Positions 11,861 through 63,707 of a stretch of DNA of 64,000 bases are shown piece after piece. The position numbers were made by a program, and so were the translations under genes. Under the pieces are notes generated by a model. That model was not told where the DNA came from. It saw only the letters and a program-made list of their open reading frames with translations, and did no database searches. Origin of the DNA: Malacoraja senta (Eukaryota); assembly GCA_038087875.1 (NCBI GenBank), contig CM075991.1, positions 8,992,001-9,056,000 on the forward strand. The letters run 5' to 3'. The first letter of the stretch is position 1. Every line of letters begins with the position of its first letter.

Positions 11861-12906
11861 TAGCAATGTTACAAAATTTGGAGATTTTAAAAATCAAGTC
11901 TGCAATTTATCCCATCAGATAAAGCATAAAAAGACGTTTAATTTGACACCTAATTCACTTTCATATCTTCAGTATTAAAAAAGTTATGGCCATTTTCATA
12001 CTCGGAAATTAGCATCTTGTTCCCTATTGCTTTTCCATTGACGTAACACAAAAGCTGTGATCGAGGACAGTCAAAAGCCCATAACTTTCTTAAAAATTAA
12101 GAGAACTGAAAGAAATTTTCAGTTATTATAGATTGAAGCATTCTGAAACAAATATGAAACAATCTTACTTAGATGACATGAAATTAAAGCATATAATTAG
12201 TTAGTTACCTAATTGTAGCTAATTACAAAATTCAATTACTAGATCTAAACATCTATCAATTTCTTAAGAATAGATTAACATTTTTAAATAGCCTAAGTGT
12301 CCAAATAACATTCACACAAGAATTCACAATATAACATAATTTGTAAATCTCATTGTCATGGATTTATAGGCCAAATGGAAGGAATTTAATGTTTAACACC
12401 TCTAAATTAATGGCCATTTAAATCATCTTGCGAGTGGGTTTTTCTGGAACGTGATCAATTGGAAAGTTGATTTGCGGTGAATTTAAACCCGTATCGGCAT
12501 GAAAAATACTGCCGGTTCGTTCGGGGAATAAAATAACCGTTTCGCAATTTAAAATGTGAATTAAAGGCCTCTTAAGAAGCACTTTTATACATAAAATAAA
12601 CAGCTTTCGTTTACCTGTCCCGTGCGTGAAATCCGTCCCCGTTGTCAGCGTTGACGGCTTTCGAAGCTGATTTTAAAATAACTCCAGCGCTGAAATTGTC
12701 GGGCGAATAAAAATAAAAAATACACAAAACGCCCATCGGAACGATTCTTCAGCAAAAGCTTGCACTCCAACGAAATATAATTCAGGACAAGGTAGGAGAA
12801 ACCCGCGTTTTAACCCCGCCCCCCCCCCCTTAAAGGCGCCAAAATCGCGCACACGGCCTGTGGCAGAATTGCAGCGCTGCTGAAGGTAAGTATTGTAACA
12901 TACCTA
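11861..12906 (+). mobile_element. Non-autonomous DNA transposon (TAG...CTA termini), copy 1
   Basis: Imperfect TIRs TAGCAATGTTACAA / TTGTAACATACCTA, TSD CTTGAGG (11854-11860 and 12907-12913), no ORF. Confidence 0.85.
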
Positions 12907-13010
12907 CTTGAGGTTGAGCAGGCTGGAACTCTATTCCTTGGAGCACAGGAGGAGGAGGGGTGATCTTATCGAGGTGCACAAAATCATGAGAGGAATAGAT
13001 CAGATAAAGG

Positions 13011-14052
13011 TAGGTATGTTACAATACTTGCCTTCAGCGGCGCTGTAATTCTGTCACTGGCCGTGTGCGCAATTTTGGCGCCTTTAAGGGGGGGCGGGGC
13101 TAAAGCGTGGGTTTCTCCTCCCTTGTCCTGAATTATACTTTGTTGGAGTACAAGCTTCTCTGGAAGAAGCGTTCCGAGTGCCGTTTTGCGTAGTTTGTTT
13201 TAAAAATCTCCCAACAAGTTCAGCGTTGGAATCATTTTAAAATCATCTTCTGAAGCGTCAACGCCAACAACGGGGACGGATTTCACACACGGGAAAGGTA
13301 AACGAAAGTGCTTTATTTTAATGTATAAACGTTCTCCTTAAGAGGCCTTTAATTCACATTTTTACATGCGACACGGTGATTTTATTCCCCGAATTAACGG
13401 CAGTATTTTTCATGCCAATACGGGGTTAAATTCACTGCAAATCAACGTTCCAAAAGATCGCGTTCCAGAAATCCTCACTCGCAAGATGAATTAAATCCCC
13501 ATTAATTTACAGGTATTAAACATTCAATTCCTTCCATTTGGCCTGTAAATTCATGAAAATTAGATTTAAAAATTATGTTATATTGTGAATTATTGTGTGA
13601 ATGTTATTTGGACACTTAGGCTATTTAAAAATGTTAATCTATTCTTAAGTAATTGATAGATGTTTAGATCTAGTAATTGAATTTTGTAATTAGCTACAAT
13701 TAGGTAACTAACTAATTATATGCTTTACTTTCATGTCTTCGAAGTAAGATTGTTTCATATTTGTTTCAGAATGCTTCAGTCTATAATAACTGAAAATTTC
13801 TTTCAGTTATCATAATTTTTAAGAAAGTTATGGGCTTTTAACTGTCCTCGATCACAACTTTTGTGTTAAGTCAATGGAAAAGCAATAGGGAACTAGATGC
13901 TAATTTCTGAGTATGATAATGGCCATAACTTTTTTTAATACTGAAGATATGAAAGTGAATTAAGTGTCAAATTAAACTTCTTTTTATGCTTTATCTGATG
14001 GGATAAATTGCAGACTTTATTTTTAAAATCTCAAAATTTTGTAACATTGCTA
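13011..14052 (-). mobile_element. Same DNA transposon family, copy 2, inverted
   Basis: Reverse-complement homology to 11861-12906 along its whole length. TSD ATAAAGG (13004-13010 and 14053-14059). Interrupts a CR1 fragment. Confidence 0.85.
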
Positions 14053-22034: not shown

Positions 22035-23222
22035 TTCTAAGTAGAGTTCTATGTAGATTACTGTATATCCAAATGTCTCTGCTTGTTGGCATAGGTACAT
22101 TTCAGCAGTGTGGAAAATATGCTTGGATCAATTTTGTTGATCCATTCATACTCTTGAATACATCAATTAGCTCTCCTTGGCATCACCTTCCTTCCAGAGA
22201 AGATAAATTTAAATGGCTCAGTCACTCCTGGAGTTAATTCTGGATAAAGAGAAAGAATGCATCTGTGTAGCTTTTTTCCCCCACTGCCGCAGGATATCCA
22301 AAAGAGTTTTGCATCTGATGAAGTACATTCACCACCCTCCAGGTTCCAGCAGTGAGAGAGTCTAGGACCAGAGGGCACAGCCTCAGAATAAAAGGATGTA
22401 CATTTACAAAGGAGATGAGGAGGAATTTCTTTAGCCAGAGGGTGGTGAATCTGTGGAATTCATTGCCACAGACGGCCGTGGAGGCCACAAGTCAATGGAT
22501 ATTTTTTAAAGCATGGCGGATTAGACTGGCCTAGTTCTGCTCCTAGAATTTATGAACTTGTCAACTTTTCTCTGTATCTCGGTACATGTGATAATAATAA
22601 AACTTAATCTCACCCCAAACTAAATTCCAATCAAAATACATTTTTAAAAATTCTTCCCATTTTCACTTTCTGATTTATTCATTCTTTAGTGATCATTGCG
22701 AGACCCATGTTATCCTTGAGAAGGCGGTGATGAACAATTTTGTTCAAACTCTGCAGTCTAGTTTAGTTTAGTTTAGAGAGACAGCGTGGAAACAGGCCCT
22801 TTGTGGAAACATGTGGGGAGCTGATTGTTGCCTATGGAGTTAGTTGTTGTCCTTAGCGTAAGTTTGTATAATCAGTTTAGATACTGCTTTGGGCTTGGTT
22901 GAGCGCTTATTCTGGTGTTATAGCAGAAGTACATTTAATTGTAATTGTATTTCTCCCTGTGAATGCGTGGGTTTCCTCCGGGTGCTCCGGTTTCCTCCCA
23001 CACTCCAAAGGCGTACAGGTTTGTAGATTAAATGGTTTTGGTAAAAATTGTAAATTGTCCCTAGTGTGTGTACGGGGTGATCGTTGGTTGGCGTGGACTC
23101 GGTGGGCTGAAGGGCCTGTTTCTGCGCTGTATCTCTAAAGTCTAAAAACTCCATGCTGTGATTTCTCGCCATTGGCACCGCAGAGTCACCCAGTGATATG
23201 TGCTCAGAGCCTAACCCACACT

Positions 23223-23660
23223 ATCTTCTTCTTCTTAGGCCCCCTTCGGTCATGGCTGACCATGGGTGTCTCCAGGGTGCTATTCTTTATATGGAGGACG
23301 CCTGTGCGTGACTTTGTTTAACGTGGGGAGACTGGTGCACTGACAGCCACCACACGGTCCTTGACAGATCTGGGTCAGGATCCAGTGGCGTGGAGTCCAA
23401 GACAACCGGAGACCCTTTTCTGTTGCAGCCTTCATCCGCCTTCCCAGCCGTTGTGACGCGACACTAAGGTCAGCCATCGTCCTCCTCCGCCTGTTCCACC
23501 GTTGAGGTCTTGGTTGGATTGCTCTTTGTCAGAGACCTCCCCCTCGACCTTACCGCCATGGGTGGCCCTACCAGGAGCATAGCTCCAGACGGCATCGCTC
23601 TCAGGATCTCAGGACCACACAAGCTTCTCCACCACGACAAGGTGACAATCCATGGAGAAG
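23223..23660 (-). mobile_element. Non-autonomous RTE-like retroposon (438 bp)
   Basis: TSD ACCCACACT (23214-23222 and 23661-23669) and (GAA)n tail. The 5' sequence CACCTTGTCGTGGTGGAG resembles RTE (Rex3/Expander-type) 5' ends. No convincing ORF. Confidence 0.75.
23516..23660 (-). ncRNA. Predicted HDV-like ribozyme with extended P4
   Basis: P1 CUUCUCC/GGAGAAG, P2 GGAUUGUC/G(A)GCAAUCC, P3 ACC/GGU, L3 UUGUCGU, J4/2 CAAA (C at 23528). Confidence 0.7.
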
Positions 23661-24104
23661 ACCCACACTGTAGGGCTCCAAGAAAAGGTTCAATCGACTT
23701 TATGGTGCAGCACAGTGTAATCTGCCACTGCATGTGCCAGCCTTTGCCAAGGTATAAATATTTGGAAGAGAATCAGAACCTCACACAGTGCCAAGCCAAC
23801 TCAGGTTAATATGATTCTAAGCCTTAGAGGGATTGTCAAGGACAGACACAACGTTCCAATAAACACTCAAATATGACCTGGTTCACAACAGTCTCCAGGT
23901 GAATCAGTCTCCTTTCAGGCTGAAAGGAATAACATCCTAGAAGCTGTGGAATCATGCAGGCTTATCCGATGGGTATCAAACTGATTTCTTTTTCCAAGCA
24001 CAGAATATATGGGTAGGAAAGGTTTAGAGGGATCTGGGTCAAATACAGACATAAGGGAGAATGTAGAAGCAAAGAACTGCAGAAGTTGGTTATTACACAA
24101 AGTC

Positions 24105-39492: not shown

Positions 39493-40055
39493 TAAAGATA
39501 CTGTCACAGTGACAGAGTCATACGGCATGGAGACAGGACCTTTGTCCCAACTTGGCTATGCCAACCAAGAATCCCCAATTCAGTCCCATTTGCCCGCATT
39601 TGATCCATATCTCGCTAAACCTTTCCTATCCATGTACATGTCCAAGTGTCCTTTAAATGTTGTTAGCTTACCTGCCCCAACTACCGCTTGGTTCTTGATT
39701 TCTTGGTCCTCCAAAATATTCCAAATGGAATTTAAACTGGAGGTGGTGGAGGGAGGACTTAAGCCAGAAGGGGTTTTTAGGAAGGTAGCACTTTCTTCCC
39801 AAAAACCCCAGTTTAAATTCCATTTGGAATATTTTGGAGGACCAAGAAACCAAGAACCAAGCGGTAGTTGGGGCAGGTAAGCTAACAACATTTAAAGGAC
39901 ACTTGGACATGTACATGGATAGGAAAGATTTAGCGGGATATGGATCAAATGCGGGCAAATGGGACTGAATTGGGGATTCTTGGTTGGCATAGCCAAGTTG
40001 GGACAAAGGTCCTGTCTCCATGCTGTATGACTCTGTCACTGTGACAGTATCTTTA
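39493..40055. repeat. Long inverted repeat, 248-bp arms, 67-bp spacer
   Basis: 39493-39740 is the reverse complement of 39808-40055 with only a handful of mismatches. Confidence 0.93.
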
Positions 40056-45374: not shown

Positions 45375-45940
45375 TTTAGTTTAGTTTAGTTTAGTTTAGT
45401 TTAGAGATACAGCCCGGAAACAGGCTCTTCCGCCCTCGGAGTCTGCACTGACCAGCGATCCCCGCACACTAACACTATCCTACACACACTAGGGATAATT
45501 GTACATTTATACTAAGCCAATTAATCTACAAACCTGTAGGTCTTTGGAAACTGAAGATCTTGGAGAAAACCCACGTGGTCACGGGGAGCAGGAATGTCAT
45601 TGTCCTATCAGGGACACATGACAATAAGGTACACAAAAATGCTGGAGAAACTCAGCGGGTGCAGCAGCATCTATGGAGCGAAGGAAATAGGAAACACCTA
45701 TTTCCTTCGCTCCATAGATGCTGCTGCACCCGCTGAGTTTCTCCAGCATTTTTGTGTACCTTCGATTTTCCAGCATCTGCAGTTCCTTCTTTAACACACA
45801 TGACAATAAGCTCACTTGAACTTGAACTTGAACTTGAGAACGTACAAACTCTGTACAGGCAAGCACCCATTGTCCGGATCTAACCCGGGTCTTTGGCGCT
45901 GTAAGGCAGTAACTCTACCGCTGCGCCACCGTACCGCCCA
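45375..45940 (-). mobile_element. HE1/V-SINE with nested inserts
   Basis: SINE split by a LINE tail that itself contains a Penelope-like palindrome. Confidence 0.8.
45629..45795. mobile_element. Penelope-like palindromic insertion
   Basis: Flanking duplication ACACATGACAATAAG (45614-45628 and 45796-45810). Confidence 0.7.
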
Positions 45941-59217: not shown

Positions 59218-60200
59218 TTATATATTTGCAGCTTCTAATATTTTCTCTGCAAATAAATCTGGTTTCATCAACGGCTTATTATAAAAAGTTCTGAATGTCG
59301 TTTCCCTCGACCATCCTGCTGTATTCAGAATATGGTCAACCGGTACGTCCATTCTTTCCGCCGTTGATGTAGATGCTGCCCTAGTGGAATGAGATTTAAA
59401 TGTATTAGTATCTATTCCGGCAGCCTTCAGCACCTGATTGAGCCATCTTGCAATGGTTTGGCTCGTTACCTGGCCATGAGGTTTCTTGTGGCTGACCCAT
59501 AAGGCTTTTTCACTCCCTCTGATATTGTGGGTTGTGTCTATATAATGTTGTAGATGGGTCACGACACACAACCGTGGCTCTTGTGGGTAGGCCCGGAATA
59601 CCACCAGTGGATTAGCTGTTCCTGGCCTGCTTTGCTTCATCAGACCCTGTATGATGAATGTGATCTGATCTGGGGTGGTCACCATGTTGCCCAGCCTTAA
59701 CTTGTGTAGTGACTGAACCCTCTGAGCGGATACGAGTGCCATCAACATGAGCGTCTTTAGTGTAGATTGCTCGAGGCTGAGGGATCTGGCTGGTGGCCAT
59801 TCCCTGAGGTATGTCAGGACCACACTGATATCCCAAATATGGGTATACCTGGGTTTAGGGGCTTGATATTATAAATACCCTTCATCAGTTTTACCACCAG
59901 TGGATGTGATCCCATTGCCTGTTGTCCTGCTGGTTTGAGATACGCAGAAAGAGCACTCCGCGCTGTGTTGATGGCACTGTAACTAATCCCTTCATCATGG
60001 TGTAGATGGGCCAGGAACTCCAGTACGTTGGTGGCTGTGGCTGTTGCATACGTTGTTCCTGTTTCCTGGCAGTACTTCTCCCATTTTCTTATGCTGCTTA
60101 AGTACTGCCTCTTGGTGGATGTTCGAAGGGATGCCGACATGGTGGTGATGGTACGTTCGGACAATCCCAGTTCCAGATAAGGTCTATTCAAAACCTGCAA
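59218..60200 (-). pseudogene. DIRS tyrosine recombinase, frameshift near 59860
   Basis: N-terminal SAM-like part (STKRQY..W..YC, SYSAINTARSAL). Catalytic part with SAQRV, K, HSTRAAS, AGWS and TFRTFY (R-K-H-R-W-Y pattern). Confidence 0.9.
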
Positions 60201-60599
60201 CCCAGGAGTTTAATTTTCTCATGACATGGGTGGCTTATGCCTGTTACTGGGTGAGTTAATAATCCTGGATCACTGGGAAAGACCATTGGTGACTCAACCA
60301 CCATGTCATGTAGAACCGGGAACCATGGCTGTGTAGGCCAGTCGGGCACCATCAAAATTCCAGAAGCAGAGTCCATCTGTATTTTGCGAAGTACCCGACT
60401 GATGAGGCAGAAGGGAGGGAAAGCATAGAAGAAGAACTTTCCCAATCAGCGTGAAGGCATCTAGCGCTGCTGCCTCTGGGTCTGGTTCCCAAGCGACATA
60501 CATAGGTAACTGGTGATTTAGTCGTGATGCAAATAAATCAATATCTGGCATTCCATACTGCTTAATAACTTTAGCAAATACTTTAGGTTTAACATCCAT
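60188..60599 (-). pseudogene. DIRS DAM-like (N6-adenine) methyltransferase domain, split by a frameshift
   Basis: PDIDLFASRLN...DAF in one frame and YAFPPF...VPDWPTQPWFP in the next are the characteristic DIRS1 MT motifs. Confidence 0.85.
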
Positions 60600-60975
60600 T
60601 CTATGTTATCATTGAATTTGCGTGACCTGGTGTCTGCCACTTTGTTTTGCTTACCTGGTAGATAAGTAGCTGATAGCCAAATATGTCTTTCGACACACCA
60701 TTGCCAAATCACATTGACCAATTTGTCGCATGATAGTGATTTTATGCCGCCCATATGGTTAATATAAGCCACCACCGTAGTATTATCTATTTGTAACCGA
60801 ACATGCAAGTGCTGCATAGTAGATACATATGCTTTTAAACCATAAAAGGCTCCCAACATCTCTAGATAGTTAATGCCCAGTGTCAGTAGTAACGATGACT
60901 CTAGGTTAGTCCATCTACCACCTGTGCTGGATATGGAGTTAGTTGCTCCCCAGCCTTGAGCACTGGCATCTGTTG
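60518..60975 (-). pseudogene. DIRS RNase H domain
   Basis: INYLEML, IDNTTVVAYINHMGG and YLPGKQNKVADTRSR are typical DIRS RNase H motifs. Confidence 0.88.
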
Positions 60976-62208
60976 AAGAACTAAAGTAGGGTTAGTGATA
61001 ATGATAGAGCTGACACTATGCCAAACATTTTCTGCCCACCACTGTAGCTCTGATATTGCTTCAGTGGGTAATTTCATGACACGATCATAGTGACCTGTAT
61101 GTCGTTTTAGTGCCTGTACCTTTGCTCTTTGTAAATTTTGATAGTGCAAAGGTCCGAATTGTGTAGCCGGAAATGCTGCTACCATTTTCCCAATCACTCT
61201 TGCTACTTGTCGAATAGTTGGTCGTTTGTTGACCATTAAATTGTTGCATGATTGTGCTAATGCAACCATTTTTTCCTTTGGCAAGGTAACAGTCATATGG
61301 ACTGAGTTAATTGTGAAGCCCAGGTAGTCCATGATAGTGGATGGCTTCAACTTAGATTTATCTGGATGTATGATGAACCCCAGAGTTTCGAGGAGCTGTT
61401 TTGTAGCTGATACTGCTGCCACAGCCAATTCCTTCATTTTCCCTACTATCAGAATATCATCCAAATATGCCATGACAATAAGTTTTTGTTTTCTTAGTAT
61501 TGCCATGGCTATTTTCAATATTTTGGTAAATAATCTTGGGGCCGAAGTTAGCCCATTGGGCAATGCTTTGTACTGCCACAGCTGCCCCAACCAGATAAAT
61601 TTTAGGTATCTGCAATGATCTTTGTGTATGGGGACTGAATAGTACGCATCTTTAAGATCAATGCTTGCCATGAAGTATCCTTTGGAAATCAGTTGTTTGG
61701 CAGTAACAAATGTTTCCATTTTGAAATGTATATACTGAACAAACTTATTTAGTGATCTTAAGTCGATGAGGATGCGACATCCCCCATCTTTTTTGGTTTT
61801 AGTGAATATATTTGATACAAATTCCAAAGGTTCATGTTTGGTCTTTTCGATGACCCCCTTTGTGATAAGTCTCACCAGTTCAGCTTGTCCCTCATGTTTC
61901 TCTTTGACGGAGGGAGAAAATACCCTTTGGGGCCAATGTTGAACTGGCGGCGATTGTTCTGACATGAACTGAATTTTATATCCACTAATGCTGTTGAGTA
62001 TATACTTGTCACTCGTGACAGTAACCCATGCTTCTTTAAACAAGTGTAATCTCCCCCCTGTTAGTAAAGCACCCTTATTCTCTATATGCTGGCAGGAACC
62101 AGACCCACCTACCTCCATGGTTATTGGTGTTTCTTTTGTTTCCTGAGGTTTTTGTACGGTTTGTTTGTCTGACGTGCTGGCGATGTTGGGGGGTGGCGCA
62201 TTTTCCAT
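60901..62208 (-). pseudogene. DIRS reverse transcriptase domain (frameshift at the RT/RNase H junction)
   Basis: Motifs GGRL, KKDGGCR..IDLRSLN, FKMET, IDLKDAY, ALPNGL..APRLFTK, YLDD, YLGF. The frame is lost near 60970, where the expected DAS..GWG continues in another frame. Confidence 0.93.
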
Positions 62209-63422
62209 GGGGTCCGCTGTGGGCCCTGATCTAAAAAAGATCTTTGGGGATAAAATGCGGTCCCCGAGCTTTCACCAGTCCCATATTGAGGATGTCGACT
62301 GGTGGATGCCATGGGGTGCTGCCGCTTGGGTATTGCAGCTCTTGGTTTGCTCGTCCCGGGGCCTGCCCTCATGAGGCCGAATGTTTTCGCTGCTTCCTCC
62401 ATGTCCCTCAGTTTTTTATTGAGGTCTTTCCCAAATAACAGAGCATCCGTCTCTGCAGCTGGGGCTCTGCACAACCCAGCAAATTTGGGATTGAGGGCAG
62501 GTCTTATGTTTTCGCGCCGGAGATTGTTGATTTCAAATTGTGTGTTGCACATCAGTGCCAGCACATCCTGCTGGCACGTATCCATCTCCGTACTATCCAC
62601 AGAACGAGCAAAGGCTGTTATGGCTGACGTCAGGAGCCTCAGGATCCGCTGTAGCTTGACTTCATGGTTACGCATGTTTGACCCCACGTGCCCCCAGATC
62701 TGGCTGTTCACAGTCTTCACTCTGAGGGCCTCACAGTTCTCTGGTGCTGTGTACAGTTCAAGCGCCTCTAGCAGTACCTTCTCCTGCAAGGGCTTATTTG
62801 ATAGATGATTTATGCTGGCCGCCATTTTTGGTTCCAGCGGTCTTCCAGCACGTGGGGTTGCTACATAGCGGTCCACGACACCCAGCAGCTCTTCCTGCTC
62901 CTGCACCCCTTGCATACCGCCGAATTCGTCCGCCAGCCCCTGTTCCAGACCAGCCCAACCCTGGTCACCAATGCTAGCCTCCAGTAATGAGGGAGCAGAG
63001 GGCAGTGCACAAGACACTGTGGAGGAGGTGCCTGACCTACCTCCGCGGGAACGCTCCTTCTGCGCATCCCGCTGGAGCATCTGCTCCAAGAGCTGTTGTA
63101 AGCTCTGGCAGCTGTCTCTCCTCCGTTTCGGTGGAGACATGTCCCACTCCGACGAATCAGAAATGACCGGCCGGATACTTTTTCTCATGGCTTTCCTCCC
63201 TGTCCGCTGTGCAGGCATTAGCGGGACTGGGCTCGGCTCGGTCTCGGGGATAGCGGAGCGCTCTATGTGCGTTCCTGCCGCCTGTTGCTGTCCCCCTGCG
63301 ATTGAACGCTCCTCTGGTGGAGATGAGCTGGGGGCAGTTCTCTTCGAGAGTCTTTTCTTTTGTGAACTCATTTCGTAAGTACACGTCTTTAACTCTCCTT
63401 CTCCGTTAGATAACTTCAGCAT
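62121..63422 (-). CDS. DIRS ORF1 (gag-like), 433 aa, uninterrupted
   Basis: Long open ORF directly upstream of and overlapping the RT ORF. It contains LLFGKDL and RRENIRPALN-type motifs resembling DIRS gag C-termini. The true start may be the internal Met (MSSQKK). Confidence 0.8.
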   Translation of the reverse strand: MLKLSNGEGELKTCTYEMSSQKKRLSKRTAPSSSPPEERSIAGGQQQAAGTHIERSAIPETEPSPVPLMPAQRTGRKAMRKSIRPVISDSSEWDMSPPKRRRDSCQSLQQLLEQMLQRDAQKERSRGGRSGTSSTVSCALPSAPSLLEASIGDQGWAGLEQGLADEFGGMQGVQEQEELLGVVDRYVATPRAGRPLEPKMAASINHLSNKPLQEKVLLEALELYTAPENCEALRVKTVNSQIWGHVGSNMRNHEVKLQRILRLLTSAITAFARSVDSTEMDTCQQDVLALMCNTQFEINNLRRENIRPALNPKFAGLCRAPAAETDALLFGKDLNKKLRDMEEAAKTFGLMRAGPGTSKPRAAIPKRQHPMASTSRHPQYGTGESSGTAFYPQRSFLDQGPQRTPWKMRHPPTSPARQTNKPYKNLRKQKKHQ

Positions 63423-63707
63423 ACTTACCCAACGGTCCGTCTTTTAAACTGCAGCCGGAGCGCCTTCCTCCAGCTGCCGCCGCTGTTGCACTGCTGGCGT
63501 AATGCCGCGCCTGCGCACTGAGCGGGTTCTTCACGAAGTCACTCACGTGACTCCGAAGTAAAATCTGTAGGCTCCTTTGGTGCAGCTGCAAGTACTAACA
63601 CTCAGACTGAAGTCAAACTTGCAATGGGAAACTTGTTACCGAGGGCATTCTGGAATTGACAAGGTTTATCTGCTACAAACAAAGCCTCAAACACCTACCA
63701 ACAGTGA

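Follow-up and report, generated by a model that had tools for sequence, protein, structure and literature searches.

The locus at 23223..23660 of the window (the whole 64,000-nt stretch of DNA that was analysed) raises the question of where a short retroposon with a ribozyme-like start obtained its parts and which enzyme copied it. The element is a non-coding retroposon of ~430 letters on the minus strand, with nt 1 at 23660 (C). It contains no ORF, is bracketed by a 9-bp target-site duplication (TSD; AGTGTGGGT, at 23669-23661 and 23222-23214), and carries a ribozyme head and a 3' end from two non-LTR elements, so we refer to it as the hybrid. Our analysis indicates that it is probably a 5' UTR of LINE family D, with a predicted ribozyme, joined to the 3' stem-loop of the distantly related LINE family C, the family C reverse transcriptase (RT) likely being the enzyme that copies it. 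The parts of the element are listed in Table 1.

Table 1. Parts of the hybrid element in the window, and ribozyme heads of related LINE families used for comparison.
Feature	Position	Strand	Remark
Target-site duplication, 5' copy, 9 bp	23661..23669	minus	adjoins nt 1, no gap
HDV-like nested double-pseudoknot fold, 145 nt	23516..23660	minus	predicted cleavage between 23661 and 23660
P1 5' strand	23654..23660	minus	first pair C-G; partner 23630-23624
P2 5' strand, P3 and L3	23631..23651	minus	L3 position 3 G (23638) with C 23623 = P1.1
Large P4 domain, 94 nt	23529..23622	minus	covariation clearly backs distal 5-bp hairpin only
J4/2 with predicted catalytic C (23528), and P2 3' strand	23516..23528	minus	
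Head: first ~390 nt of LINE family D 5' UTR	23271..23660	minus	7-nt deletion near head's end; 85-92% identity to 10 D loci; majority sequences near-identical
Junction 14-mer = SWRHP-coding stretch of family C endonuclease	23263..23276	minus	exact in 6/8 C copies
Tail: LINE family C 3' terminal stem-loop	23236..23268	minus	31/33 identical; predicted RT recognition signal
(AAG)n microsatellite tail + 2 nt	23223..23235	minus	
Target-site duplication, 3' copy	23214..23222	minus	
Heads compared, by family	A, L284-L303; B, L059/L062/L067; E, L173/L178/L179; G, L163:252-397		

HDV-like ribozymes share a consensus in which L3 reads U..CG.Y and J4/2 carries a catalytic C and an A. The window element can be folded into the nested double pseudoknot of P1, P2, P3, P1.1 and P4 by which such ribozymes are recognized, and its L3 (UUGUCGU) and J4/2 (CAAA) agree with this consensus. 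The first-pass annotation had proposed this fold, and we recovered P1 (CUUCUCC 23660-23654 with GGAGAAG 23630-23624, 7 bp), P2 (GGAUUGUC 23651-23644 with GAGCAAUCC 23524-23516), the 3-bp P3 (ACC/GGU), L3 and J4/2 as it had drawn them, with the C of J4/2 at the catalytic position, 23528. J1/2 is AU. P2 has six Watson-Crick pairs followed by two pairs with one bulge, and all pairs become Watson-Crick when the G is bulged instead of the A. The proposed (GAA)n tail was present, and the base at the predicted cleavage site, 23660, is directly abutted by the 9-bp TSD. Position 3 of L3 is G with C at 23623, and it is C with G in the short family (48646), as had been pointed out. The ~90-nt P4 described as structured held up in its length (94 nt from P1.1 to J4/2); its structure was not evident from the window copy alone, where P4 is no more stable than its shuffles (z +1.09), but the distal hairpin is backed across families.

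A strict descriptor of the HDV fold overlooked the hybrid, and a bulge in P2 was then permitted. In this looser form it finds two loci in the window, namely the hybrid and the short element, and also a weaker alternative for the P1 strand at 23687; the same descriptor gave 18 matches in 1346 dinucleotide shuffles of the 64-kb window. A search of Rfam returned no HDV-family match to the window element at E<=1, probably because the HDV models are family-specific and the long P4 lies outside them. The minimum free energy structure of the 145-nt head is a non-pseudoknot alternative in which the P1 5' strand is paired elsewhere, and imposing P1 raises the energy by 2.7 kcal/mol. When a 30-nt leader was added, the pair probability of P1 averaged 0.68-0.77 for each of six transcript lengths. 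The hybrid head is best described as a predicted HDV-like self-cleaving ribozyme that starts exactly at the 5' end of the element. In the flank, 23687-23681 (minus strand) is a possible weaker alternative P1 5' strand, which may slow cleavage of the window copy.

Relatives of this head were compared among the RTE-like LINEs of the same genome. A genome-wide search with RTE-like coding pieces yielded at least six LINE families (A, B, C, D, E, G), A and B having been found via PF20049. Homologous HDV-like heads with a large P4 are carried by families A, B, E and G. Majority P1 letters differ yet are fully paired in D, A (20 copies), E (3 copies) and the short family (window copy), and the majority P1 of family B (3 copies) is paired at 6/7 positions. 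In a 10-row alignment, the outer P2, P3 and the P4 hairpin were 93% paired, compared with at most 48% in slid controls, a count from which P1 was left out because it is out of register in the alignment; double-sided changes occur at 3/14 pairs. The alignment fold of P4 showed double-sided changes at 9/24 pairs with a small covariation term, and the structure was derived from the same, related sequences, so that shuffle counts should not be read as probabilities. The first-pass annotation had recommended a check for covariation; across families, P1 covaries in the comparison of majority sequences, and P2 and the P4 hairpin covary in the alignment. P3 is invariant, except for an A.A mismatch at its first pair in family A; J4/2 is CGAA in families A and B and CUAA in E and the short family, and family E has almost no J1/2. 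Several copies of family A are internally deleted to 650-1,150 nt.

Two earlier statements on the fold need qualification in the light of this comparison. The P1.1 "swap" is real, as a true pair predicts, but it represents a single difference that sets the short family, alone in having C-G, apart from the rest. All 5/5 large families, namely A, B, D, E and (in one old copy) G, have a G-C P1.1, and this is the inherited state. Likewise, the first pair of P1 is indeed C-G, and this too is the inherited state, being common to A, B, D and E, that is, all four large families with readable P1. A C1 start has also been reported for the active L1Tc ribozyme (PMC3185411).

The head of the hybrid was traced to family D, an autonomous ~4-kb RTE-like LINE that starts at the same C. 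Hybrid nt 1-~387 were found at 85-92% identity in 10/20 loci fetched by endonuclease similarity, four of the ten being segmental duplicates of one insertion. The D loci run on from the shared head into a longer 5' UTR and then an APE-RT frame, and two full-length D copies (~2-4 kb) are bracketed by TSDs. The hybrid retains ~245 nt of the D UTR after the ribozyme. Families A and B were considered as head donors and set aside, since their ribozymes are related (71-82%) but not the source of the hybrid head. The family D RT (L176:1165-2283, minus strand) shares 72% identity with a goldfish protein and 73-76% with two unnamed contig proteins, and a search of the PDB gave no relative of this RT piece. 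We presume the host to be a cartilaginous fish; for any host other than a bony fish, horizontal transfer is a possibility.

The parent LINEs have a single ORF with APE followed by RT (Pfam PF03372/PF14529 and PF00078), a short 3' UTR and a microsatellite tail. They also contain SWRHP, a C-terminal zinc knuckle and DUF6451, which we take to be RTE motifs, and the RTE clade label of the parents rests on this architecture and these motifs; no named RTE reference was among the 120 matches listed for the D RT. Their full-length relatives are mostly ~1,000-1,100 aa with the same domains, and a single-protein layout is described for RTE elements in PMC13708176.

The 3' end of the hybrid has a different origin. 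Family D ends in a different hairpin and (GAT)n in 8/8 copies read to the end, and hybrid nt 393-425 are identical at 31/33 positions to the 3' end of family C, whose RT is 36-39% identical to that of D. A single-parent label therefore fails for the hybrid. Family C as sole parent was our first choice and was ruled out by its unrelated 5' UTR; those C LINE copies that are complete at the 5' end have non-HDV heads. The element had been annotated as an internally deleted RTE derivative, and it is indeed a non-autonomous derivative of RTE-like LINEs, but one with two parents, the deletion form of D (D-D) being a separate family. This D-D family (L239-L258), first noticed as loose ends in public contigs, consists of the D head (nt 1-370), the D tail and (GAT)n, and 11/20 copies start within nt 1-9. 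Since ~20 nt more of the D UTR are kept in the hybrid, it was not derived from D-D. The corresponding C-C family (L259-L283) is internally deleted, with a sharp 5' start and GC-rich stems in its head, in which the HDV descriptor found no HDV fold.

Two positions in the tail of the hybrid, and the repeat that follows, are not as in C. AAG follows in 38/57 hybrid ends and TAC/GAC in 2, whereas C-type ends have TAC/GAC in 51/55 and AAG in none. One tail allele fixed in the hybrid (28/30) is seen in 8/25 C-C copies and 1/30 C LINE ends, a hint that a subfamily related to C-C supplied the tail. TSDs are similar in all families, each of which is dispersed. The (AAG)n end resembles that of A and not that of C. 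This end invites a reading in which the anatomy of the hybrid is the same but the helper was family A, or several RTE proteins that are less strict in recognizing the 3' end, and (AAG)n came from A. The 3' end of family A consists of a 6-bp hairpin, GGG, pyrimidines and (AAG)n, so that 18 of the last 19 nt of the hybrid match it, and its age is similar (median 3.0%). However, that 19-nt match is mostly repeat, and the hairpin itself is C sequence (31/33), unlike that of A. In RTE elements, the end of the RNA itself probably serves as template for the repeat tail, and if so, one founder change would suffice to explain the repeat. We regard a helper from family A as unlikely and retain family C as the probable helper.

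The junction between head and tail is marked by a 14-mer (hybrid nt 385-398), the first 6 nt of which are common to the D 5' UTR and the last 6 nt to the C 3' end. Its last 12 nt are shared with the D endonuclease in 5/10 copies. By simple arithmetic, the chance of finding a fixed 12-14-mer in a 4-kb LINE is ~1 in 4,000 to 70,000. Two microhomology joins would account for every letter at the junction, including two that are explained by neither end. An exact-pattern search of the genome for the junction intermediate, in which the head runs into the endonuclease, found none; its three matches are all point mutants of the hybrid. Long-range pairing of the LINE 5' and 3' ends at the junction was also considered and was unsupported: whole-UTR duplex tests were erratic, and in a sliding pairing test the D junction window was outside the top 4 in 4/4 copies, while the C window was top in 1/3. 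Short hairpins flank the D-D and C-C junctions.

The same 14-mer bears on an alternative in which a D head and a C-like tail were first combined in a LINE subfamily that we have not seen, by recombination at the LINE level, and the hybrid is a simple internal deletion of that subfamily. A LINE with a D head and a C body would place the 14-mer in endonuclease-coding DNA, where it is found, and the hybrid tail departs from C at two fixed positions and in the repeat; moreover, the genome searches scored the best candidates only. Nevertheless, 8/8 D LINE ends are D-type, the C LINE heads are non-HDV as described above, and neither the search for a C-type end with the hybrid alleles nor that for the head into endonuclease (three matches each) returned a LINE. 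In the former search, which was genome-wide and aimed at a C-type LINE with an AAG tail, the three matches with both alleles were all CTA-tailed. A preformed D-C LINE is therefore quite improbable in our assessment, and we continue with direct joining of D and C parts.

Exact junctions in the genome numbered 392 for the hybrid, 214 for D-D and 204 for C-C, with 0 for each reversed control; the junction patterns differ in length and CpG content (31 nt for the hybrid), so that the counts rank the families only roughly. Allowing for ~3% decay, we estimate ~1,000 hybrid copies. The window element, itself included, has at least 40 matches at 94-100%, these being the best 40 of 3081 candidates, which include related forms. 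Pieces of public contigs cross the hybrid junction in 4/4 runs with four organism codes; all 24 listed runs are contig sets, and such contigs show neither starts nor strand. Non-CpG divergence had medians of 2.9% for the hybrid (n=25), 3.8% for D-D (n=17) and 2.8% for C-C (n=24), with p=0.03 for hybrid versus D-D and p=0.14 for hybrid versus C-C. Under a laxer filter, the medians were 3.3 (hybrid), 3.8 (D-D), 2.6 (C-C), 3.8 (D LINE), 3.1 (C LINE) and 3.0% (A). These ages agree with a late origin of the hybrid, the differences being small and drawn from 17-25 copies each.

The 5' ends of hybrid copies are sharply placed. Thirty copies were taken as the first junction matches by position, without regard to similarity at the 5' end. 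Of these, 16 begin no further in than nt 3 and 20 no further in than nt 9, and the others are 5'-truncated; many copies have target duplications of 8-16 bp. The ribozyme core is intact in 2/30 sampled hybrid copies and in the window copy. Such ends could also arise if the fold were a passenger, with cleavage slow or unused, and the 5' end were set by a Pol II promoter inside the 5' UTR of D. The C-C copies start equally sharply without an HDV fold, so sharp ends of this kind are also within reach of an internal promoter, and in HDV, pyrimidine-first P1 pairs are slower. Against this reading, P1, P2, P1.1 and the J4/2 C have been kept, with compensating changes, in families that share 25-42% RT identity with D. 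In addition, G stands at -1 in only 3/40 full-length D-type copies compared with 17% in flanks; the depletion does not reach significance (p=0.06), and nothing points to an extra G derived from a cap. A passenger fold seems unlikely to us, and the predicted ribozyme is kept as the source of the 5' end in what follows.

From this anatomy, and from precedent in R2, L1Tc and RTE elements (PMC3414825, PMC3185411 and PMC6765202), we infer the following mechanism. A hybrid copy would be transcribed by read-through from a host promoter, and the ribozyme would cut just before nt 1, with C23528 as the catalytic base, to leave an uncapped RNA with a fixed 5' end. The C protein would then bind the tail hairpin in trans, nick the target and reverse-transcribe from the (AAG)n end. 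The founder may have arisen by two microhomology-guided template switches or recombinations via the endonuclease-coding stretch, and this tail swap would have let the D head go on spreading on C machinery after D's own burst.

The closest precedent is found in the R2/R1 hybrid SIDEs of Drosophila (Eickbush & Eickbush 2012, PMC3414825). According to that paper, these elements are also non-coding, join the HDV-like ribozyme head of one element to the 3' end of another and are inferred to use the machinery of the tail donor, and a template jump or recombination was proposed as their origin. They are described there as rare, confined to 28S rDNA and joining two clades, whereas the hybrid is dispersed, has at least 392 copies and joins two lineages of one RTE-like group. 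Unlike them, it also resides in a vertebrate-sized genome, retains the ~245 nt of UTR downstream of the ribozyme and occurs alongside D-D and C-C. By analogy, we consider the hybrid, each ingredient of which has a precedent, the dispersed, abundant counterpart of the R2/R1 hybrid SIDEs.

A second comparison concerns the bipartite ORF-less RTE LINEs (RTESINE1/2, WALLSI3, Bov-A; Kojima 2018, PMC5786205), which consist like the hybrid of an extreme 5' end and an extreme 3' end, with a microsatellite tail and without a Pol III head. They are defined in that paper as internal-deletion products of one LINE parent, a description that fits D-D and C-C, whereas the window hybrid has two parents. The same paper links 5'-end retention to ribozymes and describes SINE tail exchange. 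The L1Tc/NARTc ribozyme of Trypanosoma cruzi (PMC3185411, PMC4035085) likewise places an HDV-like fold at the start of a LINE and its short derivative, with cleavage mapped to C1 and a single-pair P1.1; the hybrid also has C first and a single-pair P1.1. L1Tc belongs to the Ingi clade, and its ribozyme is 77 nt with a short P4 and demonstrated activity, whereas that of the hybrid has a 94-nt P4 and is predicted. RTE elements with 5'-terminal HDV-like ribozymes, proposed to free them from co-transcripts, have been reported (Ruminski et al. 2011, as cited in PMC7936874, PMC5786205 and PMC6765202). Our literature search, which covered the papers themselves, found no RTE-RTE hybrid with a ribozyme head and no report of the hybrid family, which may already be catalogued in Repbase/Dfam or the supplement to Kojima 2018.

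The occurrence of D-D, C-C and D-C in one genome amounts to a natural head-by-tail swap experiment. It extends the hybrid-SIDE principle from a rare rDNA case to an abundant dispersed family in a 1.9-Gb genome, in which parents and derivatives can be read. Whether RTE proteins need their own 5' UTR or the 3' hairpin alone becomes testable with natural sequences, as does the question whether an HDV-like ribozyme is active when its first pair is C-G, its P1.1 is G-C and its P4 has 94 nt. More tentatively, the ribozyme head might be a portable, promoter-free expression module that permits a change of helper LINE: the D head would have crossed to a ~38%-identical lineage by template-switching through the conserved SWRHP-coding motif, a ready microhomology common to RTE lineages, and would then have out-amplified both single-parent derivatives. 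If this were true, RTE RTs would need just a 33-nt tail and not the cognate 5' UTR. The question bears on RTE-based gene-writing templates, which use cognate 5' and 3' UTRs (PMC13708176).

The short family (window 48646-48500, minus strand) is ~134 nt long without its (GAA)n tail and has an HDV-like core of minimal size. The first-pass annotation had suggested kinship between the hybrid and this family, and the comparison does not bear this out: homology does not extend beyond the letters of the ribozyme core, and blastn gives only 7-8-nt matches. Its core is closer to family B (19/21), and no partner LINE was found for it among 306 loci compared. The best 40 of its 1128 candidates are at 99-100%, and the short family is therefore much younger than the hybrid. 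Elsewhere in the window, 59218-63443 (minus strand) holds a DIRS-like element with largely open RT (PF00078) and tyrosine recombinase (PF00589) frames. Long near-perfect inverted repeats lie in 11977-13935 and 39493-40055 (538 nt at 93% and 257 nt at 97% with a 49-nt spacer, respectively), and short fold-back SINE pairs are found near 45650 and 47560.
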